Part shown: one piece after another, positions 26,940 to 57,441 of the stretch
How positions within the stretch are numbered: position 1 is the first letter of the stretch
Layout: every line of letters begins with the position of its first letter
Assembly (NCBI GenBank): GCA_008632985.1
Contig: QPGO01000088.1
Coordinates: forward strand, 62,001 to 126,000
Source of the DNA: Psammoneis japonica
Taxonomy: Eukaryota
Direction of reading: 5' to 3'
DNA: 64,000 nucleotides
Translations under genes and position numbers: made by a program
Notes under the pieces: generated by a model
What the model saw: the letters and a program-made list of their open reading frames with translations, nothing else
Database searches by the model: none
What the model was told of the DNA's origin: nothing

Positions 26940-26958
26940 AGGGAGTGGTGGGTGGGTG

Positions 26959-27194
26959 GCAAAAAATGGCTTTTCCAATGCTTTGGCATGGTCCAGTCAC
27001 GTTGATCAGAGTTCCTGTCTCAACAAAGATGGAAAAGTGGGGAAACAGGATGCCGACAAGTTTGACCGGTCACAGAAACCGGTCATCTTGGCCCAGAGGT
27101 GCCCTCCTCTGGAAGAGGCACATGTCGGTGGACTAGCCAGATGAGAGGTCTTGCCTCGCACGGTTCGTCTCCATCTAAACTTGGGTGCGAAGAG
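26959..27194. repeat. Split direct repeat A2 (236 bp)
   Basis: Colinear direct copy of 35375-35610 with 9 differing sites. Confidence 0.95.
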
Positions 27195-27637: not shown

Positions 27638-27720
27638 CCCCCGATGAGAACTCCCAGGCAGTGGCCACCACAGAGATCAGCTTGTGACAAACGCACCCTG
27701 AAGGCGCACCCGAGCCAGTT

Positions 27721-32860: not shown

Positions 32861-32884
32861 CTGTGGTGCGCCCCCCCCCTGGCC

Positions 32885-35356
32885 TCATTTCTTTGTCTCC
32901 AGAGCCTTCAGACGACGGTTCACCTCTTTCAGCTCCGCTTTTAACTTGTTCACCTCTTGGTGTGCCGTGTCGGCTCGCGCCTGCGCCGACTTTGCTTCCG
33001 TCCCCGCATTCTTGGCCTTGTCGGTGAGGGTCACAACCGTGGCCTGCAAAGCTGTCACCACTTCAAAACCCGAATTGGTCGCGAGGAACTTGACACACTC
33101 AGATGCCATCGAGGGGTGGTCCTTAAAGTTGTGCGCCGTGCATTCGGCCATTACGTCCTGGGACCTGAACACCGCCCAAAGAATTTGACTGCACACCGCA
33201 TCGGGATCCGTCCCAGCGATCGAAGTGAAAACCCCTGACCGAACCTGGTTGAGGTCATCGAAGATCCAGTGTACGAGTTTCGACGTCAAAGACCAAGCCT
33301 GTTTCTGAGAAAACTTGCTCAACTGCACAAGATTTTTGCAGGTCTCGTCCATGAACTGCATCAGGGCCCGTGCGAACGCCACGGACTTGGACAGAGCGTC
33401 TCGAACAACCTGGCTCTCAAAAGAACCGCTCGGGATCCTCTGGGAGATGTCATTTGGTGCATTGCGTTCGATCGTGACGATCTTTTCCATGACAAAGTGT
33501 TTGGCACCAGTGGACCCAGTCGTCCAATGGTCATGGGATGACACCTTGTCTGGGAAAGAGGGGTGCAGCCCGGGTGACTGAGCTCCTTTCGCTGACCCCG
33601 AGTCAAGGATCCTCGGCATGCTGCATTGGAAACTGGCAAGAGTTCGCGCATCCTCCTCCGCACTGATCTTCAAGTCCATCCGTTTGGACAACCCAGCAAG
33701 GAAGTGATGCAACGCGGCGAGCTCGGTGCCCGCAATTCGGCCCAACAACAAATTGGCATCCGTAAGACAGCCATGCACTCTGGAAGAAAAATGCTGGACC
33801 ATCCAGGCCTTGCACTCTGAAAATGACGAAACGCCTGCACCCGAGAATTTGATGGCTGAAGATTCCGATTTGGACTTCAGCTCATTGACCGCTTGGCTGA
33901 GGTCTCGGATTTGACGATCGAGTGTCCCAGAGGGCGAGACACCCGCTCCACTCACCCCACTGCCGAAGCCAGCAACTCCTCCACCCAACGTAGCGGCGTT
34001 CTCCAACCTCTGCACTTTTGCCACTAGTTGGTTGCAGACTCTCAGGGTCCCCGCCCTCAGAGAGTCCAGGTCGCGTTTAGGAGCGAGGCTGGAGAGCTGG
34101 GCCTGGACCCTTTGAAGAGCTGCAGTAAAACTTGACGCCAACCTGTTGGACCCGGCCCGAGCGCTGCTTTCCAAGCGGGCCATTTCAGTAGAAAAATCCC
34201 GAGGTTGAGCCGAACTCAGTGTCGACAGGTTAGCGAGCGTCCCCCAGATAGTTGGGGCTTCCACTCGCTGGTCGAGCTCCGCCGGAGGGGCACCAAGAGT
34301 GGCATCGAGCTGTTCCAACTTCCGACTCAGCACATCAAGTGCCAAGTCCGAGTCTTTGAACCTGGAGCAGGCTTTGTTTCCCAAGTCGACCAGAACTTGT
34401 CCCGTCTCCGACAAGTTTCGTTCGACCGACTGCACCACACGAGCCAGGGCCGCCGGGCTCTTGTTTGCTGCAAGAAATTGGGACGGGGCAGTGGCAATCG
34501 CCCGTTGGCAAGGGGAGAAGTGGCCAAACTGTGACCCCGGAAACAAATCGCTCCCAGGATCCTTGGTTTTCGCTGGGGTTTTGTAGGCCGCAGCCTCCTT
34601 GCACTGCTTGAGAGACTCGCCAAACTGATCCTCCGTCGGGAAGCGCGACTCACTGTTTCCTAGAGCTGGGAACTTTTGACGCCACCCCGCCAAGGTGTCC
34701 GATGCTGACTCCCACTTGACCAACACATCAGCAGAGACAAATGAGCCGTCGAGAGTGGGTTGGCAGAAAGCTGCACCCAGCGTCTTCAGGATCGACACCA
34801 TGCCGTTCGGAGGCACTTGTTTCTTGGATCCCTTGTGTTTCACTTTGCACTCCGAGGCTTTCTTGAAACAAAATGTCGCACCACTCCCAATTGCGCCAAG
34901 GCACCGGGTGGTGTCGGTGCCCTCCATCCAGACGACACAAAAACGAGGAGCATCAGACGAAGGAGACGCACCTTCCTCCTTCGACGTGAACGCCCCTCGA
35001 GTTGCTCCCTCATCCCCCGGAGCAAAAAAGTCCACGCGTGGTGCGTGGGCCTGCGCTCCGTCGGCTCGCGAAAGAAGGACATCGAAAGCCGAATCTGGGT
35101 TGGGGGAGTTGACCTCCCCCAATTCCGCGAGCTCAATGTCCGAGTGCCCAGCGTCGGTCATTCCAAGGTTCAAGCCCCCAAGGGAGGGGTTTGGGCCCTC
35201 AGTGCCCCCCTGATGACCCGCCCCAGAGGGTGGGGCCCGAGAAGCGGAGGACGAAGGAGAACGCGACGAGAACGGAGAGATGACATCTGACTCGAGAGTG
35301 CGGGCAATGTTGACGAAGGCCTCGTCATTGACGCCGGAAGCAAAGAAGTCAGACAT
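32885..35356 (-). CDS. Gag-like ORF1 of the retrotransposon
   Basis: First ORF after repeat A1, with a Cys/His cluster CLGAIG..FC....C...H and coiled-coil segments. Assignment is mainly positional. Confidence 0.7.
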   Translation of the reverse strand: MSDFFASGVNDEAFVNIARTLESDVISPFSSRSPSSSASRAPPSGAGHQGGTEGPNPSLGGLNLGMTDAGHSDIELAELGEVNSPNPDSAFDVLLSRADGAQAHAPRVDFFAPGDEGATRGAFTSKEEGASPSSDAPRFCVVWMEGTDTTRCLGAIGSGATFCFKKASECKVKHKGSKKQVPPNGMVSILKTLGAAFCQPTLDGSFVSADVLVKWESASDTLAGWRQKFPALGNSESRFPTEDQFGESLKQCKEAAAYKTPAKTKDPGSDLFPGSQFGHFSPCQRAIATAPSQFLAANKSPAALARVVQSVERNLSETGQVLVDLGNKACSRFKDSDLALDVLSRKLEQLDATLGAPPAELDQRVEAPTIWGTLANLSTLSSAQPRDFSTEMARLESSARAGSNRLASSFTAALQRVQAQLSSLAPKRDLDSLRAGTLRVCNQLVAKVQRLENAATLGGGVAGFGSGVSGAGVSPSGTLDRQIRDLSQAVNELKSKSESSAIKFSGAGVSSFSECKAWMVQHFSSRVHGCLTDANLLLGRIAGTELAALHHFLAGLSKRMDLKISAEEDARTLASFQCSMPRILDSGSAKGAQSPGLHPSFPDKVSSHDHWTTGSTGAKHFVMEKIVTIERNAPNDISQRIPSGSFESQVVRDALSKSVAFARALMQFMDETCKNLVQLSKFSQKQAWSLTSKLVHWIFDDLNQVRSGVFTSIAGTDPDAVCSQILWAVFRSQDVMAECTAHNFKDHPSMASECVKFLATNSGFEVVTALQATVVTLTDKAKNAGTEAKSAQARADTAHQEVNKLKAELKEVNRRLKALETKK

Positions 35357-35374
35357 GTTCGAGCGAGAGAGGGA

Positions 35375-35610
35375 GCAAAAAACAGCTTTTCCAATGCTTT
35401 GGTGTGGTCCAGTCACGTTGATCAGAGTTCCTGTCTCAACAAAGATGGAAAAGTGGGGAAATGGGATGCCGACAAGTTTGACCAGTCACAGAAACCGGTC
35501 ATCTTGGCCCAGAGGTACCCTCCTCTGGAAGAGGCATGTGTCAGTGGACTGGCCAGATGAGAGGTCTTGCCTCGCACGGTTTGTCTCCATCTAAACTTGG
35601 GTGCGAAGAG
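35375..35610. repeat. Split direct repeat A1 (236 bp), 5' end of the element
   Basis: Direct copy of 26959-27194. Confidence 0.95.
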
Positions 35611-35682
35611 TCCTCAACTCACTTGCGACTCCTCCGACGCGACGCAACCGACCCACCAAGCAAACGGGCAGAAGTTGACGTA

Positions 35683-37718
35683 ATCATGACGTTTCGCGTC
35701 GCGCGGGACTGGGACAAGACACACCGCACTGCACCCGCCAGGCACAGCTGGCTCCTCCACATGCTCCAGCTGCACTGCGACACAGCGCACAGGCGTGGTG
35801 GGAAGAGTGGAGAGCAGGCACATGCAACATCCAGCCAGCACAGAGCTGCCAGAAGCAGAGCAGTGAGCAGCCCAGCCAGCTGGAAACAGACAGATGGGAG
35901 CAACAGCTTTGGCAGCCATTGTCGATGCCAGCCAGCGGCAATTTGCAGCAGCCCATCACAAAAAGAAAGAGGGCAGCTCTCAGGAAGAACTTGTTGTTCT
36001 TGCCATGCCTTGCACACAATCTGAAGCTGCTTTCTGATGGAAAACATGGCAGCTTCAGTCTTGCTGCTGCACACATCTAAAGTCACATCCTTCGCATCAT
36101 CATGTCTCTCAAGCAGTGCACAGCTCCCCACAGGCTGCTGGGCTCTCTGCACAAGGAGAAGAAGGTGCACGCTCTCACTGTCTCTTTGGTGTTCATCAAG
36201 TGGCCTTTTCATTGCTGGTGCCCTTTGGGCATGCAACTTTTCTTGGGTGCTTGTTGCGGCCACTGTGGCAAGAAGGAATCTGGCGCACACTCCAGCTCTG
36301 CCTTGCACTGTGCCGCACTGTGGCATGAAAGTCTTTTTGACCATGCCACATGTTGTGCACATGCATTTCTGTGTGTGATCCACTGTGAAATTGTTCTGCA
36401 CTTCCTGTTTTGTGAAGCCAAAGGTTCTCCATTTTCTTCATTTGTGAAAGCAAAAAAAGTGCTGGGCGTGCTCTTCAACGTGTGAAGAGTGTGCCTGGGC
36501 AAGCTGGGAATCATGTGCTTCAAGCGAGGACTTTTTCTGTTGGCGGCCATTTGCATGATGTTCATTGCTGGACAATTTTGCTGTGGAGCTTGCATGAAGA
36601 ATTCTGTGGGCCTGGTGTTGCGCGCAGCCCCGCCTGGGTCCAGGGTGCATTGTCTGTTGTTGTGTCAATGTGCTTGCCTGCACCCATCATGTGTGTTGTG
36701 CTTTTCTGGCAAAGCTCAGCCAGCAGAGCCATCAGCACTTGTCGTTTCATTGTCATTGCAGAAAGTGCCCCACAATGCAATTTGCACCTTTGGCAGAAAG
36801 CTGAGTCCTTGACAAACCATGTTCTTCAAGACTGGGGTGAGTTCCGCAAGATCTTGTGATTTTCCATGACAGAGGAGAAGTCCACCCTTGGCATCTGCAG
36901 CTGCCTGCTGCAAACTGCACTGCATGCCCAGTTTCTCACCCAAGTTTCTGCCACTCCAATGCCGACAGCCGCCCAGTTCATTGTCATCTTCTCTCTTCCC
37001 CTTGTTCCTCATGCAAAGTGCAGACAAGGTTTTTGTGGTGCAGCAGCGTGCAGTTGTTTCCATTTTTGAATTGCTCATTGTGGCCAGTGCTTGCTTTCCT
37101 CTTGTCTTTCTGTTGAACAGTTTTCAACAACTTCTCATTCATTGTGATGTGCTGGTGGGCCGCTTGCTCCCAGAGGCAGCAGGTGCGCAAATTGTCTGTT
37201 GTCATTCTCATGTGCACATTTGCACACCACACAGCAAACACAGGAATGACAAAACAACTCTGTGCATCAGGTGACAACAAATGATTTGTGCGCCTCTCTG
37301 GTCATTCACTCCAGTTTTGAGCAAGTTTCTGGACAGACGCTGGCTGTCCAAAGAAACTCTGTCCTCTCCAGTGCATTTTTGGGTTTTGCCAGCAATTGCG
37401 AGCACCTTCATTTTTGCACAAGAAAACAGTTGAGCTCATCTTCTGTGTCTGCCCCTTGCCCCCTGCCTGACCTGACCCCCAGGACTGGAGAAAGATGGGT
37501 GAGACATCTGGGTTTGGGGCTGACCACTTCCAAAATGACCAAACATTTGCAAGAAGTTTTTGGACATGAAACAGCGCTCAATGATCTTTGAAGGCTTCAG
37601 GACCTCACATGCATTGCTCTGCAAACAATGCAAAACACACCAAATTTTGCCACTGCCTGTGACCGACGACCGACGCGTGGTGCATCGCATTCGGCAGGTC
37701 GCGACACTCGACAGATGT
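35683..37718 (-). mobile_element. Decayed transposon, possibly MULE/MuDR-like
   Basis: One TA in ~2 kb. Minus-strand fragments TTDNAPWTQAGL..P...CKLH and FTVD...CMCTTC....MPQC resemble the MULE D...CxxH motif and a SWIM finger. No terminal inverted repeats seen. Confidence 0.45.
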
Positions 37719-40092: not shown

Positions 40093-43000
40093 TTATACAG
40101 TAACAGGGAGATCACGGCAGTCATCCCTTGCGTTCTTATGAATTGTTCCCATCAGTGGTTCATTCCTTCTCTGTCCGTTGTCATCGGCGTTCTCAAGCGG
40201 CTCGAAAAGTTCCCGTGCTTCCCTTTCAATGCATTCCAACATGTCCAAACAAGTTTCCTTGTATCCCTCAACTCCATGGTCAGTCATCAGGAGAGCTCGT
40301 TGAAGCGCCTCGGCACTTGCATGAAGCAAGCTCAATGCACGAATCCTCCCCCTCTCGTTTGGGCTAGTCTCGACAACCATCACTGCCATCGCCCATAGAC
40401 TTAGCGCCGAGGCCCGCTCCAGGCCAACACAAACTCTAGCATTCATGGCGGATCCTCTACCAGATGGATTAAACTGAACCATTGGCAGACTCATGGAGGC
40501 GGGCGCAGCCTCTTCCTTGCAGGCGTTCCTTGCCGTGAGAAGAGTTGACAGGAGATTAAGAGCCTTTTCGTTCTTTCCGAGCTCGTTGAGGCACCTTGCA
40601 ACTGCACACGCAGTTGGCAGAACGTTGGGATGGTCGATAGTCCGAGATTGCGTCCAGCCCCTGAGAGCACGCTGGTAGTGCTCGTATGCGGAAGTCCACA
40701 TGTACCTACTCTTTCGCTCATTCTTGATCGTCGGTCCAGATGATTCATGAGAGCTTCCTTCCATGAGAGCGAGGCAGTTGGCCAGAACAGATATCGAATC
40801 GCCCACAAGGCAATGATTGAGCAGCGTAATCTCGTGATTCCTCCCCACAAGATCTAGAAATTCTCGCTTCAGCAGGCGACGAAGGACCGAGACGAATGCT
40901 CGCAATGAAGATAAGTTCTTTAAACCAGTTTGATCCCGAAACGTGACGGCGTCAACGAGGGAGCCTGACATGAATCGATGTCGAGCAGACAGAAATAGTC
41001 TTTCTTGCCGAGAGAGAAAAGTCGCCACCCGTTCACAAGCTCTGCTCGCAATCCTGGTTGCTTCTGAGTGTCCTGAAATACTCGTCAGAGCTGCTGAAAG
41101 GTCAAGCATCGCCGAAAGAGTCATGGGATGACAAAGTGGCAAGTGATGCTCACATCGTGCGACTAAAGCACGAAGAATATCAACGGACTTAAAACCATCA
41201 CCACGCTCCATGTGTAGACAAGCAATTCGAGACATAATGTCGTACGGGCGTTCCGTAGTTCGATCAAGCATGCTACTTGACCCGTACTCCAGCCAACCCA
41301 TCATTCCCACTGAAATTGCTTGATTCGCAATGTCAAGACATCGTGCAAGCGCCATCTCACACCTATTCAAGTCCAACTCGGCTCCTTGACAAGACTTGTT
41401 CCCTTTGTTTCTAGACGCACGAAACTTCGAAAGAAAGTATATACCATAGAAAGTAGCTAGGTCGCGAGGATTGTGGTGAGCGTCTTTTGAAGCAAACGTT
41501 GTGATGGCGTTCACTACGTCATCTAGTGAGAAATCTTCCTTTTCTCTGGATCTTGCCAAGGCTATAGCAGCAGTGTTGGCGACAACGCCCGTTGAAGGAA
41601 CCAACGATGGACGTTGCTTTACCTTCTGCGTTTCTGTCGACGCAATATGCATCATGCCAGCATCTCCTGTTGTAGAATCATCACTAGGCTTATAACTGGT
41701 TCTGGAAGATGCTGCAACAGCAGCGGCGGCGATGCCACCAATCGGGGGGTCGGTGCGACGGTGGAAGTTATTGGAACCGAGAGCTTCCTCCGACGGAACA
41801 CCGTTTTCCTTCAGTCTCTTATGACGAGATGCCGCTGCTGCGGCAGCTGCAGCAATACCCCCGCCAGCGAGAAAGGGAGGTGCGGCAGAACCAAGATCTT
41901 CCTGTTGCTTCTTAATCATCTTTTCTGTAGATGCTTCAGTGATTTCAACTCGCGATTTCGCGTCGTCGGGCTTTCGTGAAGCCTCCTCATCCTCCTTCTC
42001 CTTGGGAGGTGAAGTCAAAGCGGCAGTAGCAACACCCGAAGGAGCACACGGTGATGATTGCTTTCCCCTTGGTACTTTCGATGCAGAATTTACGTCATCA
42101 GCACTTTCATGATCGAGAGGTTTCTTCTTAACTTTCAAACGTAAAGCTGCTGCCGCTGCAGCAGCCGCCGCTATACCCCCCGCCTGCGGGTTTGGATGAC
42201 GGTTGACATCAACAGCAGTGTTGGCGCCTGTCGGTGACACATGCTCCGACACAATTTCCTTGACACCACTGGTGTCGTCATCACAAGGCTTCTTCTTGGC
42301 TTTCAAACGTGCCGCTGCTGCAGCGGCAGCCGCTATACCGCCAACCGCGGGTTCTGGGCTACGACGAAAGTCATCGGAAGCTTCCTCAGACGGACCAACA
42401 CTTTCCTTCTGTCTATTCATGCGCGATGCCGCCGCTGCTGCGGCAGCAGCCGCAATGCCCCCGCCAGAGATTACGGGGGGAAGGGCAGAAAGTAGGTCAC
42501 CCTGTCGCTCGCCAACAGTCACTTCTTCTGAGATTCCAGTACGTGACATCGCATCGTCGGGCTCTAGTGCTGCTTCACCCTTCGCTGTGGAAGGTGGGGC
42601 GATAGCGGCAGCAACAGCATCGGTGCCTGAAGGATCACGCGTTAACGCATGCGTTGGTTTTGACGCAACACCCTCGACACCATTGTTTTTGTCATCATGA
42701 GGCTTCTTCTCAGCTTTCAAACGAGCCGCTGCTGCAGCGGCTGCCGCTATGCCACCAACCGGGGGATGTGGGCGATGTCGAATGCCATCGGAATCTGAAG
42801 CTCCTTCAGAAGAATTAATATGATGCGTCTTTGCTCTCAAACGTGCATTTGCTGCCACCGCTGCAGCAGCCGCTATACCCCCAAGCGGTGGGTTTGGATG
42901 ATGATTGACATCATCGGAACCCGAAGCATCTTCAAACGGATTCAAAGCCTCCCGCTCTACGGCGGGTGGCGAGATAACGGCAGTAGTGATAGCGGTCGCC

Positions 43001-46000
43001 GAAGGACCCATCGGTGACTCATGCGTTGCTTTCGGTGGTTTCCACGCAACATCCTCGACACTAATGTGTTCATCATCACGAGTCTTCTTCTTGGCTTTCA
43101 AACGTGCCGCTGCCGCCGCTGCTGCAGCCGCCGCTATACCCCCAACTGGCGGGTTTGCAAGATGGTTGTCATCGACAGCATTGGTAACGGTTGCTGAAGG
43201 ATACATCGGTGACGCATGCGTTGCTTTCTGTAGTTCCGACGCAACATCCTCGGCACCATTGTTTTCATCATCGCGAGGATTCTTCGTGTACTTCAAGCGC
43301 GCAGCCGCCGCAACGGCAGCCGCTATACCACCTACCGGGGGCTCTGGGCTACTACGAAAGCCATCGGAATCGGAGGCTTCTTCAGACAGATTTACCCTTT
43401 CCTTTTGTCTGTTTATACGCGAAGCCGCCGCTGCTGCGGCAGCTGCAGCAATGCCCCCGCCAGAGATAAACGGAGGCGGGGCAGAACATAGATCTTCCTG
43501 TCGCTCTTCCGCAGAAGCTTCTTCTGCTACCTTCGAGAATCCAGTACCTGACATAGCATCGTTGGGCTTTAGTGACGCCTCGTCCTTCACTTTGGAAGGT
43601 GACGCGAAAGCGGCAGCAACGGCACCTGAAGAAAAACGCGGCGACTCATGCGACGCACAATCCTCGTTTTCTGCATTGTGTTCGGTTTCAAGAGGACTCG
43701 TCATGGCGTTCAAGCCCGACGCTGCTAAAGCAGGCGCTATACCCCCAACCGGTGCGTGTGGACGTCTGTGGACATCATTGAAACCCGAAGCAACTTCAGA
43801 CGTATTACCAGTTTCCGTCTCTATATTCAGACATGATTCCGAATCTGCTACAGATACCGAAGCAATATCCGCTCTTTCAGCGGAACTTCGATCTTCAAGT
43901 CGCTCTTTATCCATCGGTCTGGTTACCGGTTCAGAGACTCCGAAAGTTGGTTTCGCATCGTTAACTAGTTGCAAAACCTCCTCCTGAGACCGCGCAGCGG
44001 TAGTATCAGCGATGACACCCACTGAAGTAGCCAGCTGTGGCGATTCCGTTTCGTTCGGCGCTTCGGTTGAAACGGTATCTTCGTCAAGATAGTTTCCGTG
44101 ATAAGAACCGTTGCCGTCATCAGCGCATGACGCATCATCAGGCGCCTCAGCAATGTCGCCAACAGAGGAAATAGGAAGGGGACTTGTAATTCGAATGTCC
44201 TGTCGCTCTCCGGAAGCTTCCGCTCGAGATTCAGACTTAAGCAGATGTTCTTGATTCGAAACGCTTTTATCACAGTCCTCTTTCTCGGCGACCGGATCCA
44301 TTTGATCGTGCTCGTCGTTTCCCTCCGCCGTCAATTCACCGGCACAATCTTTGTTACCGACAGTTGACAATTGCGCAGTTAGGTCGAATTCTTCAACTTT
44401 GTCGTTCGTAAGCGAAGGCATAGCCACGGTGGGTTTGTCTATATACGCCTCGTGCTCCGATATAGCGGCTGCCACATTCTGGCTCTCTTCCAAAGTAGTA
44501 TTGAAATTATTCTCCTTCATACGATCCGCCAAAACAGCAGTAACGGGTGACATCTCGGCAATATCATTGCTCGAGAAATCGCGGTCACCGGACTGCAGGG
44601 GAGTTTTGTCTTCAGAGGATTGTTCAAAAGACTTTTCAGCCGCCTCCCGCGAAGCACTGGTCCCCTGTTCTTTAGCAGCGCCAGGCGTTCCAAGAAGTGC
44701 CCGCCTCACCTCAGAAGAGGAAGTGAAAAGATCTGTACTGGCCACATCGGCAGAGGTCCTTGATTCTTCTGAATTTTCCTCTTGAATGTCACCTCGCTTC
44801 TGACGTTGGCAAGACGCTTCGGACGTATTCATCGCTCCGCTTTCTTCTTTTCCTCCAGCGTCGGGTTCGAAAACAGTGCTTGTCTCCGCAGAGGATTTGC
44901 TTTGTATCATCCCAGCATCTGTGACAAAGTCGAATGCATCATAGTTTCCATCAAATCGTGACGCCAAGTCAGTCGAATCTCCGCTAATATCTTTGTCCAC
45001 ACATTCAAAGGACGAGGAAGAAGTTTTTGAATCCTCGTCGTCCGTTTTTGGCTGTACCGCTGTTTCATCTATGGCATAAAGTTCTTGCTCTTCTAGTTTG
45101 CTTTCTTCTAACTTTTGCACCCCCTCGTCGGAATCAGTCTCGTCGTGCTTTTCGTAAGCATCATAAAACGAATCGTCTGATTCGAACGTTGCCTCAGCTT
45201 CTTTACTGACACTTTCACCCCCGCCTCTGATTCGAGCTATTTCATCTTCACTGACTTTATCATCTGACATAAGTGATTCGTCAAGAGCGCCGGAGGTAGG
45301 AGTCTCACGGATATGGCTCGACGAAGCGACAGCGGCTGCCGCCACACCGATACCTTTGAGGGACGGAGTCGTTGCATCCTGATTTTCGTTGCGCTTTCGA
45401 GCCGCGGCCGCCGCCGCAGCAGCGATTCCTCCGCCAAGAGACAGGGTCGGTACTGAATCCATATTTTGCTGATCTTCTTGGCGCTTTCGAGACGACGACG
45501 CCGCAGCAGTGGCGGCGGCGGCAATACCTCCACTGAGAGGCAGAGTCGGTGCTGAATCCGTGTTCTGCTGATCTTCTTTCCGCCTTCGAGACGACGTTGC
45601 CTTCGCCGCCGCTGCAGCAGCGATGCCTCCACCAAGGGACGAGGCCGGTGCTGAATCCGTTTTCTTCTTATCTTCTTTGAGCTTTCGAGACGCCGCCGCC
45701 GCAGCAGCAGCAATCCCTCCACCGAGAAGAGTCGGTGCGTTCTGGTTTTCGTCGCGCGTTCGAGACGCCGCTGCCGCAGCAGCTGCGATGCCTCCACCAA
45801 GAGACGGGGTCGGTTCTGAATCCGTGTTCTGATCTTCGTCGCGCTTTTGAGACGCCGCTGCAGCAGGAGCAATACCTCCACAGAGAGACGGAGTCGCTGC
45901 GTTCTGATTTTCGTCGCACTTTCGAGACGCCGCCGCCGCGGCAGCAGCGACACCCCCACCAAGAGACGGGGTACGCATTGAATCCGTGTTCTGATCTTCT

Positions 46001-49000
46001 TTGCGCTTTCGGGACGCTGTCGTCGCAGCAGCAATACCTCCATCGAGAGGCGGAGCCGGTGCGTTCTGACTTTCGTCACGCTTTCGAGACGCCGCCGCTG
46101 CAGCGGCAGCAGCAGCGATACCTCCACCAAGAGACGGGGTCGGTGCTGAATCCGTGTTCTGCTGATCTTCTTTGCGCTTTCGAGACGCCGCCGCTGCCGC
46201 CGCAGCAGCAATACCTCCACCGAGAGGCGGAGTCGGTGCGTTCTGACTTTCGTCGCGCTTTCGAGACGCCGCCGCTGCAGCGGCAGCAGCAGCGATACCT
46301 CCACCAACAGACAGGGTCGGTTCTGAATCCGTGTTCCGCTGATCTTCTTTGAGCTTTCGAGACGCCGCCGCTGCTGCAACAATACCTCCACCGAGAGGCG
46401 GAGTCGGTGCGTTCTGACTTTTGTCGCGCTTTCGAGACGCCGCCGCTGCAGCGGCAGCAGCAGCGATACCTCCAACAAGAGACGGGGTCGGTGCTGAATC
46501 CGTGTTCCGCTGATCTTCTTTGCGCTTTCGAGACGCCGCCGCTGCTGCCGCAGCAATACCCCCACCGAGAGGCAGAGTCGGTGCTGAATCCGTTTTCTGC
46601 TGATCTTCTTTCCGCCTTCGGGACGACGCTGCCTTCGCCGCCGCTGCCGCAGCAGCAGCGATGCCTCCACCAAGGGACGAGGTCGGTGCTGAATCCGTGT
46701 TTTGCTGATCTTCTTTGAGCTTTTGAGACGCCGCCGACGCCGCAGCAGCAGCAATCCCTCCGCCGAGAAGAGTCGGTGCGTTCTGGTTTTCGTCGCGCTT
46801 TCGAGACGCCGCTGCCGCTGCCGCAGCAGCTGCGATGCCTCCAACATGAGACGGGGTCGGTTCTGAATGCGTGTTCTGATCTTCGTCGCGCTTTTGAGAC
46901 GCCGCTGCAGCAGTAGCAACACCTCCGCCGAGAGACGGAGTAGCTGCGTTCTGATTTAAGTCGCACTTTCGAGACGCCGCTGCCGCGGCAGCAGCAGCGA
47001 TACCCCCACCAAGAGACGGGGTACTCACTGAATCCGTGTTCTGATCTTCTTTGCGCTTTCGGGACGCTGCCGCAGCAGCAGCAGCAGCAATACCTCCACC
47101 GAGAGACGGAGTCGGTGCGTTCCGACTGTCGTCGCGCTTTCGAGACGCCGCTGCTGCGGCAGTAGCAGCAGCGATACCTCCACCAAGAGACGGGGTCGGT
47201 GCTGAATTCGAGGTCTGATCTTCTCCACGCTGTCGAGATGCCGCCGCCGCCGCAGCGGCTGCAGCGATACCTCCACTGACAGAGGGAATCGGCGGCCGTA
47301 GCGAACCCTTCTCCGTTCCGTGTGTTTCCTTTGGGTGAGCGGGGCGTGCTATTGAACAAGCTGCCGCTCGATCGTCATCACGGGAGGCAGTGCTGCTAGG
47401 CTGTTTCATCTGAGCATCACGATGCTCGTGGTATGCAGCAGCGGGCGCTTGCTCAACGTCGGAAGAAAACTGAACCGAGGAGTCACGTGGCTCTTCATTT
47501 TCTTTCACGCAAAGATCTGTGGCAGGAAGGTCTTTGTTATTTGCCCTGCCACCACGCGACTTCTGAGACGTCGATGAGGCGGTATGGTCCGAATCTTGCC
47601 GTGCCTGCTCTTTGCTGGCATCTTGGTACATCATTACAACATTTTCAATCAAGCGTTCTACGCCATGACAACTGTTTTCTTTGTTTCGATCGTCTGATAT
47701 GGCAACGGAGCTGCTCTTCAAGGTAGGATGCAGCCTGCCGCAAAACGAGTCAGCTTCTACAATGTCGCGATGCAGCTCGTACCCTTCATGTCCAAGGACA
47801 CCGAAAAACTGAGCCAATTGCAGTTGGATCTCTACACCGGGATTTAAAATTATACGTAATGAGCGGGCCCACTATGAAGCTATGAAACCATATCGAGAAG
47901 AATCACTTACCAGCTAACATCCCATCCTTGAGACGCAAGTTCACTAACAAATGCCTATACCCTGTCGGAAGATTAGAAGGCAATATCGTCCCAACCGGCG
48001 ACAACCCAAAGAGGTTTCTTATTCGTACAACACGAAGGTGACGCCTGTCTTCTTTCAATTCGCCGCCTTTGATATCGTTCTCACTTTCAATGCAGATTTC
48101 ATTCAGCATGGACAAGGCACAAACCAGCGAACCTTCTTCGGGAAATACAAACTGGGCGCGGAGAACGTCCTTTACTTGGGAAGCATCTCCGTTGTATTTT
48201 CTATTTGCTTTTGTTTCGATAGCCGAAACGGTCTTTATTCCAACGGTGAATGATACGCTTAGCATCGTTGAGCTACCGGACTCGTCTATTGAATTCAGAG
48301 CATCAACGTTATGTCTCGCAAAAGACGCCATCTTCTCGATCAAGCTTAAAAAATGAGGTTTGTTTACCTCTGCCAGCTTTACGAGTTCGCAGGGAGTAAT
48401 GGAACTTCCTTGTGGCGTCTCATGTCTGAGAGATTGAAAGTTGTCGGTATCCGGTTCTGCAACTTCCGCATTACTCAGAATACCCCCATTGCTCTCCGTA
48501 CATGTATTGTGAAAGGAACCGATGCCTGTAAGATACGTCGAAATTGAGGGGAGCTCCCTTGCGCTTGATCGCGGCATAAACCCACTCAAGCTGTAAGGCC
48601 CAACGGATGCCTCAGGTTCAGGGGATTCAATAGAAAGCAAATGCCCTCTTTCCAGACTGTGACTGCGGATACTCCCGTACATGCTTCTGGTCGAAGACGA
48701 CCTAGTCGAGCTAACCTTGTAATCATCCAAGAACTCATTGACCCTGACTTGGTGGGTGCCTGGGCGTAACGTCATGTCATTCATAATCTCTGAATGCTTC
48801 CAAAATGCGACAATCTGACGCCATCGTAAAGATCCGTGAAAGCTTAGAGACGCCGAAAGATCCGGTGTAGAAATGTCCGAAAGGAAATCAAGCTCTGCCA
48901 ATGAGGAGAAACTGTAAAGAGCCACTTCAAAAGACTTCGAATCGCGTTCCTGAAGCATCTCCCCGAACGAGACTGGTTCGACCGGTGTCTGTATCGTAGA

Positions 49001-51127
49001 CGAATCGGGAGTGTTTGGCGAGGTGGCATTCGGCGACAACAATCTACGTGACATTCTCCTGGATGGAGTTGATGGGCCTTTCACCGATGACGATGCAGTA
49101 TTTCGACCTGATCGTGGAGATAACAAACTCCGTCGGCTATACTTTGTGCGGCTCGTAGCTGCTGGTGTTTTCCCCGGCTCTGACGTGATAGATGTTTGGT
49201 CATCACCAATCGTTTTTCGTTTTCGAGCCCGCTCTGATGACCACGGTTTCGATCTTCCTGACGATGATTGAGATGTTGTGGACTTGAAATCATGATGAGA
49301 TTGCACTTTCCTTATCGGACTCTCCAGAAAGAAGCCCGGACCGGGCTCTAAAAGTACCTCATCGACTTTTTCTGGACTAGGACTGGGAGGCTGATCGGGA
49401 AGCATATCCCACAAGGCGACAGATCCAGTTGGTGTCGGCGGAGGGGGTACAGTTTCCAATGCTGGCGATGTCGGATCTCGTGATGACTGAGGCGAATCTG
49501 GCGACGAAAGGGAAGGGGGGGACTCAGTTTTCCGCTGTGATGAAAAGACACTGTCTTGAAACAAAAACGAGGGTTCCGTAGGGGTGCCAATCCACCGCTT
49601 AACACTGCGACTGCCACCTGTTACCGGTGGCGATGTCAGTTTCTTGGAAACCATATCAACAAACAACTTCGGAGTTGTCAACAACTTCTCTTGTTTATCT
49701 CGTAACACATGCTGGCGAACGGACCAAGGAGTTTGTGACGTAGATATCGATGTATTGGATGCTGACTCAACGCTATCACGAATGCTTTTTTGAATGGCCT
49801 TAGCATGTCCCGAGGGGTGTGATGCGGACACGACACCCGGGGATTCAACGCCTTCGATGGGCCTTTCCCTCCCACCTTCATGACCAACGCTCTTCTCTGC
49901 ATAAGCTGATCTGAAATCACCGACAAAATCCGCCGACGGAGTCCCTGTCAAAGACGGGGGCGCTTTTCGGCTACCAGCATCGTGACCGACGTTCTTTTCA
50001 GCATATTCTGACTTAAAATCACCAGCAAAAGCCGCCGACGGAGTCCCTGTCAAAGGTGCGGGTCTGTGTTTTCGGAAAACAGGCGAAGCAAAGGAAGCCT
50101 GTGAATGTTGCAACGAAGCATCCTCTTGCGGTGCGGCGTTGTCCCAAGATTGTCCCGCCCCTGATGGTATAGAATCCTCCACCGTTAAGCTTTCTGATGG
50201 AGTTTTGAGGTCAGAATCTATGCTGGACGAGATTCCAACGTCTGATTCGCTTGCGAGAGCATCGCTTTTGCTCCTAGCTGTTTCTGCCACTTCCCTGATC
50301 ATTGGAGCTGCGGCGTGAGCGACCGTTGATGCAGTCGAAGCTGCTGTTTTTGCCAATCTTCTCAACGATAACGACCATTCGCTGGTATCACTTGAAGTCC
50401 AGACTGGGTTTCTTCGAGGCTTCTTAACTAATCCTTTCCACAGCGGCGTTTGTTGATTTCTTTCAGCTTCCTCTTGTGCCCTCTTTGCAGCCGCACCGGC
50501 TTCTGCGGCCGCTAATACAGGGTCCATAAATGCTACATCTTCTTCAATGTGTGGAACACGGGTGTCAACGCGTTTTCGACCAGCTAAGTCCACATCGGAA
50601 ATCGCCTGACGGTCCCTCTTGCCTCGCCTACCAAAACTCTTAACATTGCTTTGGTGTTCTGTCACATCGAGTCCATGCTTTTCGACACTTATAACATCTT
50701 CTCCACCATTATTTTGCGAACCGATTCCATTCGTGGGCGTTTCGAGAGACAATACACGGGAGACAGATTCTTCTGTTGGAGTTCCGGTACTCGTCTTCAG
50801 CCGAGATTGTGCCGCTGCAGCTACGGCAGCTGCTATTCCTCCAACTGCTTCAGAGGGCGCGCTTGCTGGATTCCCCTTTCGACCGACATCTCGGTTTCGC
50901 GCTGCAGCAGCAGCCGCCGCTGCGATTCCACCCAATGGAGCACCGCTTTCTCCTCTAGAAAGGGCAGCAGCCGCAGCAGCCTCGGCTATTCCTCCGCGAT
51001 TTATCCCTCTTCTTTCTCTTAAACCAGAGGAAGTTTCATCTGTGAGGTCCGGCTCTGCCTCCGCATCCTTCTCGTGAAGAGCACCGCGAGATTTCTCATT
51101 TTCCGACTCGCTACTCGAGTCATCCAT
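40093..51127 (-). CDS. Giant (~3650 aa) low-complexity repeat protein with a RelA/SpoT-like nucleotidyltransferase domain and a C-terminal TPR-like region; intron 47832-47910
   Basis: A GT..AG intron joins the 1074-aa and 2574-aa ORFs in frame and creates GYRHLLVNLRLKDGMLAEIQLQL. Upstream motifs are KANRKY.GD...KDVLRA and VVRIRNLF. The C-terminus has HPMTL/HPNVL helical repeats. Confidence 0.75.
41700..43750 (-). repeat. Dispersed coding repeats (PPVGGIAAAAAAAA-basic), ~10 units within three larger duplicated blocks
   Basis: The block EDL.SA.PP...GGGIAAAAAAAA.SR...KE....SEEA occurs three times in translation. Confidence 0.85.
45330..47290 (-). repeat. Coding tandem array of ~22 units (~85-100 bp each) encoding PTPSLGGGIAAAAAAAASRKR
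   Basis: Recurrent TTTCGAGACGCCGCC...GCGATACCTCCACCAAGAGACGGGGTCGG on the + strand. Confidence 0.95.
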
Positions 51128-51617
51128 GATTTTTGTGCTGCTTGCGTCGCGAAGAGAGTATACAAAAACTGCTACAGGAACTGGGAATAGGTTTTAATCA
51201 TGGGAATACCTTTATCAATTCGTCAGTGTTGAGACCCAATCGAGTGCGAATCGTCGCTCGCGTTTTCGTTGTTGTCGTTTGAGTGCCATATAATAGGAAG
51301 ACGGGCGCTCTCCTTCTTCATGCCGTCATCTTTGGGCAGGCGATGCCGCGATGCCTTCCGCGCATCGTCTCCTCTGCTCTTTTTTCACTGCAGAAAACAT
51401 TTATTTATATTTTCATGTATTTTGGTAATTTATTAGATATAAATATTTGTATTCATCATTGAACATGTGATTTCCTTTTTCCCGCCATTTTTGGTTCTTG
51501 TCGCAATTCCGTGATTTGTACCATGAAAACCACGACGCCAATTGGACCATGACGGCGTTTGCTTCCCTTCCTTGACGAAGTTGATACCAAAGCGCCAGAG
51601 CGGGTACTGTAATAACG

Positions 51618-52955: not shown

Positions 52956-55286
52956 TTAGCACTCGCATCGTCCTGCGCCAATGGACAAGGCTCCCTCGAT
53001 ATCCGCCCCGTCCTTGTGCGCACTGACGATCCATTCGTGAGTTTCTTCGACCTTGTTTAGTCTGTAAATCAAGAGAGCTCTTGTAATATAGGAGTCCGCA
53101 AGGTTGAATAGCCTTTGTTCAAACGCTATCCTACCAAGTTTGTGCAGCATTCGCGCCACTTCGATCGTATGCTTTCCGTATGCCTTCATCTTAATTTTGA
53201 GTGCCTCTTCACCAAGCTCCATTGCTTTGTCAAGATCTCCAAGTTTCTGGTGAACATCGCCCATGCAGGATGCCGTCGCTGCAACTGAGACGTGATCATC
53301 TCCCAACAGTTTCCTTTGAAGCGCGAGAACCTTTTCATAAATGGTGAGAGCTTCGTCGTAGTTGCCCCTCGCCGCTTCGATGGTACCAATGTTGTGGAGT
53401 GTAATAGCAACCTCAGGATGCGATAACCCAAGACGACCGCTTTCAAGCTTGAGTACCTGCTGATACTTTTCATAGGCAGAATCCATATCCCCCTTCTCTT
53501 TATGGAGATTTCCAATATTGCCGAGAATTGCCGCAACATTGGGATGCTGTGGTCCAAGCGCCTGTTTCATTCCTCGCAGCGCAGCACCATAAGCATCTAA
53601 TGCAAAGCTATACTGACCTTGCTTCCGGTATAATTGTCCAATCTGGTGGAGCGTCAACGCGACATCAACATCGGCAAAGGTATCTCGTTCTTCCGCCGTA
53701 GCAAAATATTTCCCGCCTGAAGTCTTCTTGCCACTACTAGGACTGTTCGTTCTACCACCGGCGGGAAAATAAGAGTTGTACAATCGTGTCATTGAATTGT
53801 CTCCAGCGGGTCCTTCGCTTCTAGTCCGCGTGGTGAGAAACACTTCCATCTCTCCGTTTTCAGAGTTTTTTGATTTGCTTTCGTTTTCGACGAATGCTTG
53901 GGATGCCTTGGCCACCTCTACAGATGCAACAGTTTTTCTATTTTCCCCGCCACTCGGTGCAGAGTCATCCTCCGGTGTGTTTCTCATTCCCGATGTCCTC
54001 GCCGATCGCCACTCCGCGGCGCATTCTAGGCTTTTCTGATACATCTCAAGTGCGTTGTCTTCTTCTCCCCATCTTTCATAGATGGTTCCCATGTCCCTGT
54101 ATGAGACACTACGCGCCAAAGGATTTCCAGAAGGATTGTTTGACGTCTCTTCGTCATCTTCATCATCAAACGCCGGTGCATCCTGGAGGGCAAGCTCATA
54201 AATCTGCATTGCTTCCTTCATTTCTCCTCGCTTCATTTGGATGCTACCAAGCATATTCAAAAGAACAACCAAACTTGGGTGCGATCGACTCAGGTTGTCA
54301 CGTCTGATTCTGTAGGCAATCGTGTACATTTTGAGTGCTTTGACGAGGTCACCGGATTCTTCGTGACGAAGCCCCATTTTTACAATATTTGCCGAGTTCT
54401 TGAACGACGTCTCAGCATGATGAGCGTGGTTAAGCAACTCCAGGGTTGAACTAACAGTAGGATGGTCATCAGGATATTTCGCTTCCTTCAACTGGTCCAG
54501 AGCTTTCACATAGTACTTGATCGCATAGGAGTAGTTGAAATGCTTCTCTTGAGCACGACGGGCTTTCGACAAGAGTCGTGTCACTTCAGCTCTCGTCTTT
54601 TTGTTTTCCACGAAGGACATCGTAAGGTTCTCCGATCCTGACGTTTTGGATGAAGCTTGGGTGTGAATGATTTCAGGGGTATCGCCTGTTTCTGCACTCT
54701 CCCAAACCATAGTTGGTTTGGTTAACGCTGGTGATTCTGAAGATTTATGAATGCGGCTTTTTGACTTATCGCCCGAAGACTGTTTTGTGACCGCTTTCGT
54801 GCTCCCAGAAAAGATGGATCTCCGCATAAAAGCCTTAATGTTGAAAGTCCCCGAACCAGATCCATATGAAGTATCCGATGTTTTGTGCCCTTTCTTGTCG
54901 ATTTCGTCGTCCCCGTCTTCTATACTCCAGCGGACCCGATTTGTGTTTCTCGTTTCGAACAAGGCCATGACTGGGTCGGCCTCCCTGATACCTGCTTCCC
55001 CATCTAACCTATCTTTTTCTTTTACAAATACCGTGTCACTCGTTCTCCGTACAGCTTTAGGTCGCTTCGGAGCGGATTTCACAGATCGAAACCGCACTTG
55101 CTTTGTTTGCCCCTTTGCCTTGGACTTTTGTGAGTTTCCTTTCCTCTGGGGAGTGTCCTCTCCTCCAATCAAGATTCCGTCGACATTCATTAGTTTCGAG
55201 CTCCGCAAATGTTGAGGGGAGGACGACATGCTTCCTCTCTGCTTTCTTGCCGGGGCCGCTGAGCTACTATTTGCTATTTGTGACAT
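52956..55286 (-). CDS. TPR-repeat protein (kinesin light chain/nephrocystin-3-like 42-aa repeats)
   Basis: Repeats LGPQHPNVAAILGNIG, LGLSHPEVAITLHNIG and LGDDHVSVAAT. Confidence 0.85.
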   Translation of the reverse strand: MSQIANSSSAAPARKQRGSMSSSPQHLRSSKLMNVDGILIGGEDTPQRKGNSQKSKAKGQTKQVRFRSVKSAPKRPKAVRRTSDTVFVKEKDRLDGEAGIREADPVMALFETRNTNRVRWSIEDGDDEIDKKGHKTSDTSYGSGSGTFNIKAFMRRSIFSGSTKAVTKQSSGDKSKSRIHKSSESPALTKPTMVWESAETGDTPEIIHTQASSKTSGSENLTMSFVENKKTRAEVTRLLSKARRAQEKHFNYSYAIKYYVKALDQLKEAKYPDDHPTVSSTLELLNHAHHAETSFKNSANIVKMGLRHEESGDLVKALKMYTIAYRIRRDNLSRSHPSLVVLLNMLGSIQMKRGEMKEAMQIYELALQDAPAFDDEDDEETSNNPSGNPLARSVSYRDMGTIYERWGEEDNALEMYQKSLECAAEWRSARTSGMRNTPEDDSAPSGGENRKTVASVEVAKASQAFVENESKSKNSENGEMEVFLTTRTRSEGPAGDNSMTRLYNSYFPAGGRTNSPSSGKKTSGGKYFATAEERDTFADVDVALTLHQIGQLYRKQGQYSFALDAYGAALRGMKQALGPQHPNVAAILGNIGNLHKEKGDMDSAYEKYQQVLKLESGRLGLSHPEVAITLHNIGTIEAARGNYDEALTIYEKVLALQRKLLGDDHVSVAATASCMGDVHQKLGDLDKAMELGEEALKIKMKAYGKHTIEVARMLHKLGRIAFEQRLFNLADSYITRALLIYRLNKVEETHEWIVSAHKDGADIEGALSIGAGRCEC

Positions 55287-55708
55287 GATTCTCCTGTGTA
55301 ACTCACTGTAGTATTCGAACTACAGTATGTTCACGCCTTCCTACAGCGACGATGAACGATGAACGATGCAATGGAATGACAGAGACCAGACGATTTCTGG
55401 AACTTCCAGTGTTTTAGTTTCGCGTCAACGGAAAATGAAATTTCTTCAGTCGTGTCAATAACACACAATATTGGATACTTACATATATAATATACATATT
55501 CAATATCTAATAAGTGTTATATCATACTGTATTGTTCAAATATCGATATTATTAATTCAGACCCATCAATGTTACTGTACAGTACAGCATAGACTACTAC
55601 TACCGTAGCTAGCTAGCTCTCTAGCAGCTAGAAGTAACTACTCTCTCTAGCTAGAGCTAGAAGTAGAGAGGTACGCTGTAATCCATAAGGTACGATAGAT
55701 TCTTCTAT

Positions 55709-57441
55709 CTATTCTAGTTTATGATGGACTCCTTTTTCTTCTCCCCTACTAGGGAGCCATAGATGCCAACATGACACTAGCCAAGCCAAGCAGAACATGC
55801 CACAGCCTAAAATGCTCCAAAAGACCGCAAACAAATCAGGAAGCTGAGGCGGCAGGTCGACCACAATTTCCAAGAAGTGCATCACCAACATTGTTGCATA
55901 AGATAAAGGAACGACCAACCATGCCAAAGGAATTTGTCTAAAGCAGGATCTTTGATCCAAAAGTGCAGTCTGGCCACCTGTTTCCGCGTCTTCCCAGAAC
56001 AGCAAGGCCAAAACTATGTACATTATGGTGATGCACACATATCCAACCTCGACACGGTCCACTCGCATCAAAGGCCAAAGACTCCAAGTACTCACGAGAG
56101 ATAACCAGTTTACAAACCGAAAGTCTTCCCATATTAGAAGCGAGGCAGGCGCAATTGCCATCAAAATGCTCTTTTCGTGAACTTGAAAGCTCGCAAGAAA
56201 GAATGCAAGACCGGTACTTGTAGTGCCCCACAAGAGAGCTCGCCAGTCGCTTTCGGCAATAGCCCTGCCTGGCTTACTAGATGATCTTACACGTCCGACT
56301 TGAAAGAGCTTTATGCATGTAGGTAAAACCAAAATCAGCGTCGTGGCAAGAGCAATAATAGGTAGAGCGGATTCTGGAATGCGTTCACGAATTGAAAACG
56401 GCTTGGTCGACAAGGCGCACCACAAATTCGATACCTTCCCCTCAAAAAGTCCTCGTTGGAACGGAAAAATACGCCGCAGAACATGAATCAAGCGTTCTAG
56501 CGCTGTCGTATCATCAATCTGACTGGGTGCGAACCACACAAATGGCCACCATTGGACCGCAAAAGTTATCACGACAGTGACGGCGAGTGCGACAAATCTG
56601 GTGGCGAACTGTAGAGCATCTCCGCCACAACATCGGCCGAGAAGATAGCAAAAGACTGCCGGAGCATAGTATAAGGTCATTTGTTTGAAGTTCAGCGCCA
56701 AACAAAACCAAAACGCCCCGATAACGCAGCTAGCAAACGGACGCCTCTCGTCGAAGGCAGTCATGTAATGAAACGACCACAATGCAAACCCAAGAGACAC
56801 TGAATTGTACTGAAAATGAGCATGGTCAATCAACAGTAGTGCTGGCTACAACAGCGATAATAGGGGGAACAGCCAAGTTAACGGGCTTGCGCCAACTGCA
56901 AAAAGATCATTCAGTCCGCTTGAATTACCTGAGACATTGCCATTGCGAAAGTCCACATTGAATGCATATCGCGCGATTCTCTTCCTCTTCTCGATACTAT
57001 CCAGACGGCAGATCCATAGACTAGCAAGTCAAGTACAATGACAGTCCCTCTCATGAATCCCTTGTGCGTCTCATCTTCAAAACCCCGAGATTCGTACAGC
57101 GCAACAGATTCTGGCCCCACCAAGTAGGACGAAAGAACTCCGCAAACATAGGAAACGTAGGCAGTCAGAGGAGGGTAATCAAGTCCCCAGTATTCCAAAT
57201 CATACCAATACCAATCGCCTATGGGAAGGTGAAGCGTCAATTCCATCCAGTGCCTCTGCGCTTCGTAGTCTCCACCGTATGCCGCGACATTCCCATGATA
57301 ATTGTCTTGGCCGGAATGAGGCTCGTAACCGAGACTGCTACGAACAATCACCAGCATGCACCACACACAAACTACAAAACTGGTTGACAAATCATTGCCT
57401 GCACTCGATGACGAGCCGTTGGATGCCACGTGCTTTCCCAT
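55709..57441 (-). CDS. ALG6: Dolichyl-PP-Man9GlcNAc2 alpha-1,3-glucosyltransferase; intron 56846-56928
   Basis: GDYEAQRHWMELT, YWGLDYPPLTAY, LIDHAHFQYN, NFKQMTLYYAP, RIFPFQRGLFEGKVSNLWC, FQVHEKSIL. Confidence 0.93.

Follow-up and report, generated by a model that had tools for sequence, protein, structure and literature searches.

The window analysed here is the whole 64,000-nucleotide stretch of contig QPGO01000088.1 (positions 62,001 to 126,000) of the diatom Psammoneis japonica, and it carries on its minus strand a giant gene that is visible as two long open reading frames (ORFs), 47903-51193 (1096 codons) and 40093-47871 (2592 codons). Joining the two across a short intron gives a coding sequence of 10,956 nt that runs from the ATG at 51127 to the stop codon at 40095-40093, its sole stop, and that encodes a protein of 3651 amino acids; an additional exon may lie 5' of exon 1. 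The intron interrupts a domain that is predicted to adopt the fold of the RelA/SpoT homologue (RSH) synthetases, enzymes that sequence-family searches would not lead one to expect at this place. A first-pass annotation of the window had described a RelA/SpoT-like nucleotidyltransferase hidden across an intron in a protein of 3650 residues; the motif series on which it relied is present on the minus strand at this location, and a giant spliced product is indeed obtained, at 3651 rather than 3650 residues. The features of the gene are collected in Table 1.

On the minus strand, the translation of exon 1 runs ...IKTVSAIETKANRKYNGDASQVKDVLRAQFVF...RVVRIRNLF...LPTGYRHLLVNLRLKDGMLA and then meets a GTAAGT donor, and the frame of exon 2 begins with EIQLQLAQFFGVLGHEGYELHRDIVE immediately after the ...GTGTAG acceptor. 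The length of the intron (47910-47832) is not a multiple of three, and its retention would lead into stops in all three frames. Splicing fuses G (47911) with AG (47831-47830) to form the codon of Glu1073, in the product context ...GYRHLLVNLRLKDGMLA-E-IQLQL. Comparative support for this junction was obtained by aligning all domain matches to the hidden Markov model (HMM) of the family, which yielded 144 rows from 139 proteins, the spliced product of the window included; in 126 of these rows the final column of exon 1 is occupied. Of these 126, 21 proceed to E-[ILVFM]-Q, the continuation expected from the proposed splice. Another 97 go on with G(K/T/M).. and terminate within 60 residues, and 8 go on with G.. 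and an in-frame insertion, after which homologous sequence returns. Because G followed by the donor GT reads as a glycine codon, the G(K/T/M).. continuation of the 97 rows can be understood as an unspliced gene call. Altogether 105 of the 126 rows enter the intron at the same phase-1 site, and the splicing at 47832-47910 proposed in the first-pass annotation is thereby supported by comparison. Moreover, 15 continuous homologues, one of them from Ditylum brightwellii, align without a gap over the exon junction; the UniProt entries of this species are presumably derived from transcriptome assemblies. Since the family rows share both site and phase, the intron appears from the alignment to be old and fixed in position and phase, cutting the codon of the putative catalytic glutamate. 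With 97 of the 126 calls running into the intron, automatic annotation misses the E-x-Q strand and all downstream sequence.

The part of the domain encoded by exon 1 (183 amino acids), when used as a query among 1.84 billion representative sequences, retrieved 140 proteins at E<=1e-3, 128 of them at E<=1e-10. Twenty-four family members were looked up, seven of which carry an organism name, and all seven belong to the diatoms, with pennate and centric forms both represented: Seminavis, two Nitzschia, a 'Psemu1' entry (which we take to be the label of Pseudo-nitzschia multiseries), a Bacillariaceae metagenome-assembled genome, Mayamaea and Ditylum. Every named species occurs once among the 24, and the family looks like one orthologue per diatom species, distinct from the plastid RSH enzymes, with the copy number taken from these 24 look-ups only. 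Searches for distant relatives stayed within the family: a profile word search returned 10 proteins, all of which belong to the family and lack any Pfam domain, and a longer search returned 4 family members, the window's own protein not among them. The 140 homologues, the near-invariant active-site columns described below and the gapless alignment over the junction indicate that the motif resemblance exceeds chance.

The fold was modelled on the spliced homologue P0006 (residues 641-829), which is 42% identical to the window in the exon-1 piece and 59% in the exon-2 piece, with a 40-row family alignment as input. AlphaFold2 without templates gave a model with a predicted local distance difference test score (pLDDT) of 85.8 and a predicted template modelling score (pTM) of 0.80, in which the elements follow one another as helix, strand 1, helix, strand 2, helix, strands 3-5 and two helices. 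The conserved glutamate lies in the fifth strand (158-165), the aspartate in the loop preceding strand 2, and the lysines at the end of strand 1 and in the next helix. In RelP and RelSeq, the catalytic aspartate (D264/D107) is described as lying in a mobile loop and the glutamate (E323/E174) in a rigid strand, the guanine as stacking on Y308, and the ATP contacts as coming mostly from one helix (PMC7983052); the positions of the aspartate, glutamate and lysines in the model agree with this published description.

A Foldseek search of the model against the PDB gave 63 matches at E<=1e-3, and all matches listed are RSH synthetases (TM 0.35-0.58), the best being SAS1 5DED (E 7.6e-6), followed by SAS2, Rel, RelA, Tas1 and CapRel, where SAS stands for small alarmone synthetase. 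Alignment of the Foldseek candidates with VIA-align ranked SAS1 first (Z 13.0, root-mean-square deviation (rmsd) 3.7 over 145 residues), then CapRel (Z 12.5, 2.4 over 151), SAS2 (Z 12.3) and Tas1 (Z 11.5), and the first 21 rows are all RSH. A search of 48,161 representative chains that was independent of Foldseek likewise returned RSH synthetase domains as its ten best matches (Z 12.3-8.5), followed by RsfS/iojap (Z 8.2) and by poly(A) polymerase and terminal deoxynucleotidyltransferase (TdT) at about 7. Because all three sets of matches rank RSH first, the RSH-synthetase fold was assigned, and the RelA/SpoT-like nucleotidyltransferase fold that had been proposed earlier is upheld at the level of the P0006 model (Z 13.0-11.5 for the leading RSH matches). 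Judged from this model, the domain shows the nucleotidyltransferase fold in its RSH-synthetase form, other nucleotidyltransferases scoring about 4 Z units lower.

Table 1. Features of the giant minus-strand gene; positions are those of the window and residues those of the spliced protein.
Feature	Position	Strand	Residues	Remarks
RelA/SpoT-synthetase-fold domain	47713..48415	minus	~905-1112	interrupted by the intron; from family alignment, AlphaFold2 model and fold matches
GIKTVSAIETKANRKY	48194..48241	minus	K965, K973, R976-K977-Y978	strand 1 and helix 2
VKDVLRAQFVF	48143..48175	minus	Asp987, Arg990	putative Mg-binding Asp987 before strand 2, then Arg990
RVVRIRNLF	48008..48034	minus		strand 3 motif R-x-[KR]-N-x-F; with loop and LPTGYRH spans 47933..48034
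LPTGYRHLLVNLR	47933..47971	minus	Tyr1057	LPTGYRH segment; Tyr aligned with the base-stacking Tyr of the RSH 'G-loop'
AEIQLQL	47815..47914, across the intron	minus	Glu1073, Gln1075	aligned with RelA VEIQIRT
AEIQLQL strand and following helices ...GHEGYELHRDIVE	47755..47914	minus		intron within
Exon 1	47911..51127	minus	1-1072 and first base of codon 1073	starts at the first ATG of the open frame
Intron	47832..47910	minus		79 nt, phase 1, GTAAGT...GTGTAG; interrupts the codon of putative catalytic Glu1073
Exon 2	40093..47831	minus	last two bases of codon 1073 to 3651	stop 40093-40095
Conserved N-terminal block 1	50243..50560	minus	~190-295	phmmer coverage by up to 29 homologues
Conserved block 2	48683..48955	minus	~725-815	...ALYSFSS...WRQIVAFWKHSE..., upstream of the catalytic-like domain; up to 44 homologues (phmmer)
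Low-complexity linker	41710..47274	minus	~2000 residues	between RSH-like domain and solenoid; Ala-rich repeats and an acidic stretch
C-terminal TPR-like solenoid	40096..41535	minus	~3172-3651 (~480)	all-helical

Within the family, the columns of the putative active site are almost invariant. The lysines K965 (133/133) and K973 (134/134) are invariant, and R976, K977 and Y978 are kept in 91, 130 and 133 of 134 rows. D987 is found in all 134 rows and R990, three positions on, in 134 of 135. In strand 3, R1034 is kept in 133 of 136 rows and position 1036 is a lysine in 134 of 136 (the window has an arginine there), followed by N1037 (135/135); beyond the loop come Y1057 (135/135) and H1059 (134/135). 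The E1073-x-Q1075 pair is kept in all 21 spliced rows, and a glycine and a histidine of the following segment are each present in 22 of 22 spliced rows. In the hhalign alignment to RSH enzymes, GIKTVSAIETKANRKY is colinear with the ATP-phosphate motif RxKxxxSxxxKxxRK, its first arginine being absent; and D987, E1073 and Y1057 stand in the places of the catalytic aspartate, the catalytic glutamate and the base-stacking tyrosine of RelSeq (D264, E323 and Y308), in a residue alignment of low confidence.

Several results weigh against the RSH assignment and against the activity that it would imply. Pfam RelA_SpoT (PF04607) gave no match, neither to the whole frames at E<=1 nor to either exon piece at E<=10, and it matched none of the 26 homologues that carry the whole domain at E<=0.01 (15 of the 26 matched TPR-type Pfam families); as positive controls, E. 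coli relA and spoT scored 148.7 and 148.5 bits with the same model. NCBIfam, PHROGs and PADLOC held nothing relevant for the domain, the sole NCBIfam match being a spurious LPXTG-anchor on the Ala-rich repeats. All PDB sequences were searched by phmmer and with a 40-sequence profile and gave no RSH, the profile matching designed helical bundles only (E>=1). Comparison by hhalign of the family with residues 200-400 of E. coli RelA produced one alignment, at 0.9% probability and E 0.061, which pairs LPTGYRH..A-EIQ with PKPNGYQSIH..VEIQIRT. With 16 spliced sequences set against 81 RelA/SpoT domains (79 of 80 loci kept, one dropped for a stop or X), 146 columns were aligned at 1.25% probability and E 0.042, colinear in K/K, D/D, GY/GY and EIQ/EVQ. 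The residue alignment to RSH enzymes that follows these comparisons is of low confidence, and the fold model is that of a homologue and not of the window's own spliced sequence. Recognition of the domain as RelA_SpoT by an HMM or a profile, which the first-pass annotation had looked to, thus failed with Pfam, with the PDB profile and with hhalign (at most 1.25% probability). On the supporting side, the ESM Atlas lists a cluster in which 24% of the members carry PF04607 (score 0.92), which was taken as a lead only. Resemblance by sequence is here a lead and not proof.

The donor site adds further contrary points. In Rel enzymes a pair of highly conserved arginines, RelSeq R241 and R269, encloses the adenine of ATP from both sides (PMC7983052). 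The column equivalent to R241 (SAS1 R46) holds no arginine in any of 133 rows (G 63, D 34, S 11, N 11), and the column equivalent to R269 (D+5) holds glutamine in 77 and arginine in 21 of 136 rows; an invariant arginine (134/135) lies two positions before it. As far as the low-confidence alignment can be relied on, the adenine-sandwich arginines of Rel enzymes are not conserved in the family, and AtRSH1, which has no equivalent of R46, is described as inactive (PMC6881373). With both Rel arginines replaced, one would expect a changed donor site. The alignment suggests that the residues that bear the chemistry were retained and the donor-base pocket was changed; alternatively, the alignment may be off by one turn. 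Since the Pfam model fails and the defining arginine pair is missing, the domain is placed outside PF04607, as a divergent and new form of the RSH fold.

The uniformly negative sequence-family searches are also what would be expected if the whole assignment were an artefact, that is, if the motif resemblance had arisen by chance and the two frames were separate genes or a pseudogene. This is very improbable, however, for both frames are very long and open, the homologues are colinear over the junction, 19 proteins carry the domain together with the solenoid, and the fold matches are strong and specific. On the strength of the model, the domain is instead regarded as real, divergent and diatom-specific, with an RSH fold that is cryptic to sequence-family searches.

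What we infer about activity, substrates, localisation and regulation is that the domain would be an active Mg-dependent RSH-type transferase with a remodelled donor pocket, carried by a non-plastid protein that is conserved in diatoms and that would bind partners or be regulated through its TPR-like end, a reading that we consider to have about an even chance of being right. The same residue counts bear on a different proposal, in which the domain is a pseudo-enzyme or ligand sensor that has kept the RSH fold and a nucleotide/phosphate pocket, carries out no transfer and contributes binding or regulation to a large scaffold protein. The loss of the adenine-sandwich arginines (0/133 and 21/136) would fit such a role, as would the inactivity of AtRSH1, which lacks the first of them (PMC6881373), the non-significant profile similarity to active RSH enzymes and the scaffold-like composition of a protein that consists mostly of low-complexity linker and TPR-like solenoid. 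On the other hand, the aspartate is kept in 134 of 134 rows, E-x-Q in all spliced rows and the tyrosine in 135 of 135, with invariant basic residues, at overall identities of about 30-50%. Degenerate catalytic sites usually lose such residues, which counts against a pseudo-enzyme, and we regard this proposal as unlikely.

The fold lists raise the question of other chemistry as well. An active Pol-beta-like nucleotidyltransferase with a different reaction (adenylylation, uridylylation, or oligo- or cyclic-nucleotide synthesis), or ribosome binding in the manner of RsfS, might be considered, given that RsfS/iojap (Z 8.3 in VIA-align), cGAS (7.8), TdT and poly(A) polymerases (about 7.3) and CD-NTases appear in these lists at Z 8.3-5.5 and that the RSH donor-site arginines are replaced. 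However, the RSH matches stand about 4 Z units higher and cover the whole model, with 145-155 residues aligned against about 100-125; the motifs follow one another as K..K..RK / D / GY / E-x-Q, the order seen in RSH; and no Pol-beta signature of the form hG[GS]...D-x-[DE] was seen in the alignment. Another chemistry is slightly less probable than a pseudo-enzyme in our estimation, and an RSH-type transfer remains the preferred reading.

Over the protein as a whole, four blocks are conserved together, namely the two N-terminal blocks, the catalytic-like domain itself and the C-terminal domain; blocks 1 and 2 have no Pfam match at E<=5. Across the 3651 residues, Pfam finds TPR_12 only, as one unit at residues 3451-3507 (35.6 bits against a cut-off of 30.1), and no HD, TGS, ACT, NACHT or NB-ARC domain; a Walker A motif, [AG]xxxxGK[ST], occurs nowhere in the protein. 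The N-terminus is acidic, with neither a hydrophobic core nor a leader. The characters of a long RSH (HD, TGS, ACT and a plastid leader) are thus lacking throughout. Conservation of the C-terminal stretch of about 480 residues extends to 19 homologues (E 2e-86 to 2e-34), which hold both the domain and the solenoid within a single protein. Its AlphaFold2 model (pLDDT 79.9) has 16 helices, and its best Foldseek matches are the TPR solenoids of Ctr9, LGN, OGT and KLC, at E 5.5e-6 to 5e-4 with TM values of only 0.13-0.28. An HMM match and a solenoid of helical hairpins, which together define a TPR repeat protein, are both found at this end. The first-pass annotation had likewise described a protein without an HD domain or a plastid leader and with a TPR-like C-terminus, and on these three points it agrees with the Pfam result, with the acidic leaderless N-terminus, and with the TPR_12 match, the 16-helix model and the Foldseek matches, respectively.

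The linker carries an Ala-rich repeat, P-x-GGIAAAAAAAA-SRKRKEDQ, of which a regular expression finds 35 copies in the protein with a period of about 28-30 amino acids. Three of the 35 copies lie near the N-terminus (about 50995-50810), and tandem DNA arrays are found at 45401-47292. Repeats of the form GGIAA[AML]AA..KK are similarly placed between the two domains in 4 of the 19 two-domain homologues, of Nitzschia and Pseudo-nitzschia type. The repeats might act as multivalent peptides that are bound, for instance, by the TPR-like domain of the same protein. Their identification as WH2 or another known motif was considered and rejected, Pfam giving no support. In the homologue P0019, residues 888-900, which are C-terminal to its TPR-like domain, give a match to WH2, a motif that binds actin monomers, of 24.7 bits against a cut-off of 23.1.

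Among known systems, the best overall fold matches are SAS1/RelQ and SAS2/RelP (5DED, 5DEC, 6FGK and 6EWZ; Z 13.0-11.8, with 145-155 of 189 residues aligned). They share with the diatom domain the order of the elements, the Lys-rich helix, the aspartate before strand 2, the Gly-Tyr loop and the Glu-x-Gln strand. They differ in that identity is only 12-16% and no HMM or profile match exists, that the GR of G-R-x-K and the second adenine-sandwich arginine are unconserved in the diatom domain, and that its loop between strand 3 and GY is longer. Moreover, a SAS is an oligomeric enzyme of about 200 amino acids, whereas the diatom domain sits in a eukaryotic protein of 3651. The lowest rmsd belongs to CapRel, a tRNA 3'-pyrophosphokinase (7ZTB/9ERV; 2.4-2.7 Å over 150-151 residues, Z 12.0-12.5), and the highest identity (20%) to Tas1, a (p)ppApp synthetase (6OX6; Z 11.5). 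FaRel (8PU1) reaches a Z of 5.7 only, and no PADLOC model matches the diatom protein. The diatom protein resembles CapRel in that its catalytic-type domain is followed, in one chain, by a non-catalytic domain at the C-terminus. The partner in CapRel is a small zinc-finger-like antitoxin domain, and the C-terminal partner in the diatom protein is, unlike that of CapRel, a TPR-like solenoid of 480 amino acids beyond a linker of about 2000 residues.

Such likenesses might point to an immune effector of CapRel or NLR type, in which recognition of a viral or stress ligand by the TPR-like domain would unleash a toxic activity of RSH type and so bring about abortive infection, as opposed to a housekeeping regulator. 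The lowest-rmsd match is a fused toxin-sensor (CapRel, Z 12.5, 2.4 over 151) and the toxic effector Tas1 reaches Z 11.5; in addition, an effector-like domain followed by C-terminal repeats recalls the fungal NLR-like proteins with RelA_SpoT N-termini (10.1101/2022.03.16.484565, 10.1101/2024.11.26.625400), which, as far as these sources describe them, are likewise eukaryotic and combine a non-plastid RSH-type domain with C-terminal repeats. The fungal proteins carry a Pfam-recognised RelA_SpoT domain and an adjoining NACHT/NB-ARC NTPase, whereas the diatom protein has neither. The fungal analogy, drawn in the first-pass annotation, is therefore loose: the RSH-type domain with C-terminal repeats stands, and the NACHT/NB-ARC domain and Walker A motif are absent. 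Identity as an NLR/STAND receptor was rejected for want of a Pfam NACHT/NB-ARC domain and of a P-loop. The single copy per named species, known from 24 look-ups only, and the joint conservation of the four blocks also speak against an immune effector, making the protein look like a conserved orthologue rather than a member of an expanding, diversifying receptor family. We consider the effector proposal about as improbable as another chemistry, and prefer a conserved RSH-type transferase.

The diatom plastid RSH enzymes PtRSH1, PtRSH4a and PtRSH4b come from the same lineage and belong to the same general fold class (PMC6881373). According to that source, they are canonical enzymes that are detected by sequence and targeted to the plastid, with the HD domain intact or degraded and with TGS and ACT in RSH1, and the three plastid-type enzymes are called sufficient for (p)ppGpp homeostasis. 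The giant protein differs from them in having no HD, TGS or ACT domain, no hydrophobic leader and no PF04607 match, and it is probably nucleo-cytoplasmic. In the titles and abstracts of the papers retrieved for such a diatom protein, canonical plastid RSH was the only subject of this kind; structure-based annotation of the family may exist in InterPro, AlphaFold DB or CATH.

The neighbours of the giant gene are ordinary eukaryotic genes. Close upstream on the minus strand, 52956-55319 (787 codons) encodes a protein of kinesin-light-chain/NPHP3 type with TPR_12 and TPR_10 matches (168 bits). Further on, 55709-56845 (minus) is a housekeeping ALG6/8 glucosyltransferase, whose named relatives are all diatoms and whose best identity in the protein collection is 63%, from which it follows that the source of the window is a diatom that has no close relative in that collection. 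A GC-rich island (0.54-0.60 against 0.45-0.50 elsewhere) extends over about 26000-36000 and contains the minus-strand ORFs 28078-29424, 29042-32884 and 32885-35485, the two largest of which have no Pfam match; the island may represent a mobile element or DNA inserted from a foreign source.

The RSH-like domain is the only enzyme-like module of the protein. If active, it would most likely transfer pyrophosphate from a nucleoside triphosphate, with the 3'-OH of a nucleotide or of an RNA terminus as acceptor, in the manner of the SAS, Tas1 and CapRel enzymes, and with the TPR-like solenoid, joined in some lineages by the Ala-rich repeats, as partner-binding or regulatory parts. A more far-reaching and still doubtful proposal, to which we give distinctly less than an even chance, is that the family is a lineage-wide nucleo-cytoplasmic RSH-type pyrophosphokinase of diatoms, evolutionarily separate from the plastid RSH enzymes and with an altered donor site, which would make an alarmone-like nucleotide outside the plastid or pyrophosphorylate RNA 3' ends under the control of the TPR-like solenoid and the Ala-rich repeats.

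These findings bear on how such proteins are found. An entire branch of the RSH fold escapes the family HMMs, and prokaryote-style gene calling truncates the domain at a conserved intron within the codon of the putative catalytic glutamate. To our knowledge, (p)ppGpp-type signalling in eukaryotes has so far been tied to plastid RSH enzymes. If the proposed activity is real, the protein would be a candidate for extra-plastid nucleotide or RNA-end signalling in major marine primary producers, the centric and pennate diatoms, and a eukaryotic cytosolic counterpart of bacterial signalling by SAS and toxic SAS (toxSAS) enzymes; if the domain is inactive, the RSH fold would have been recruited in these organisms as a binding module.

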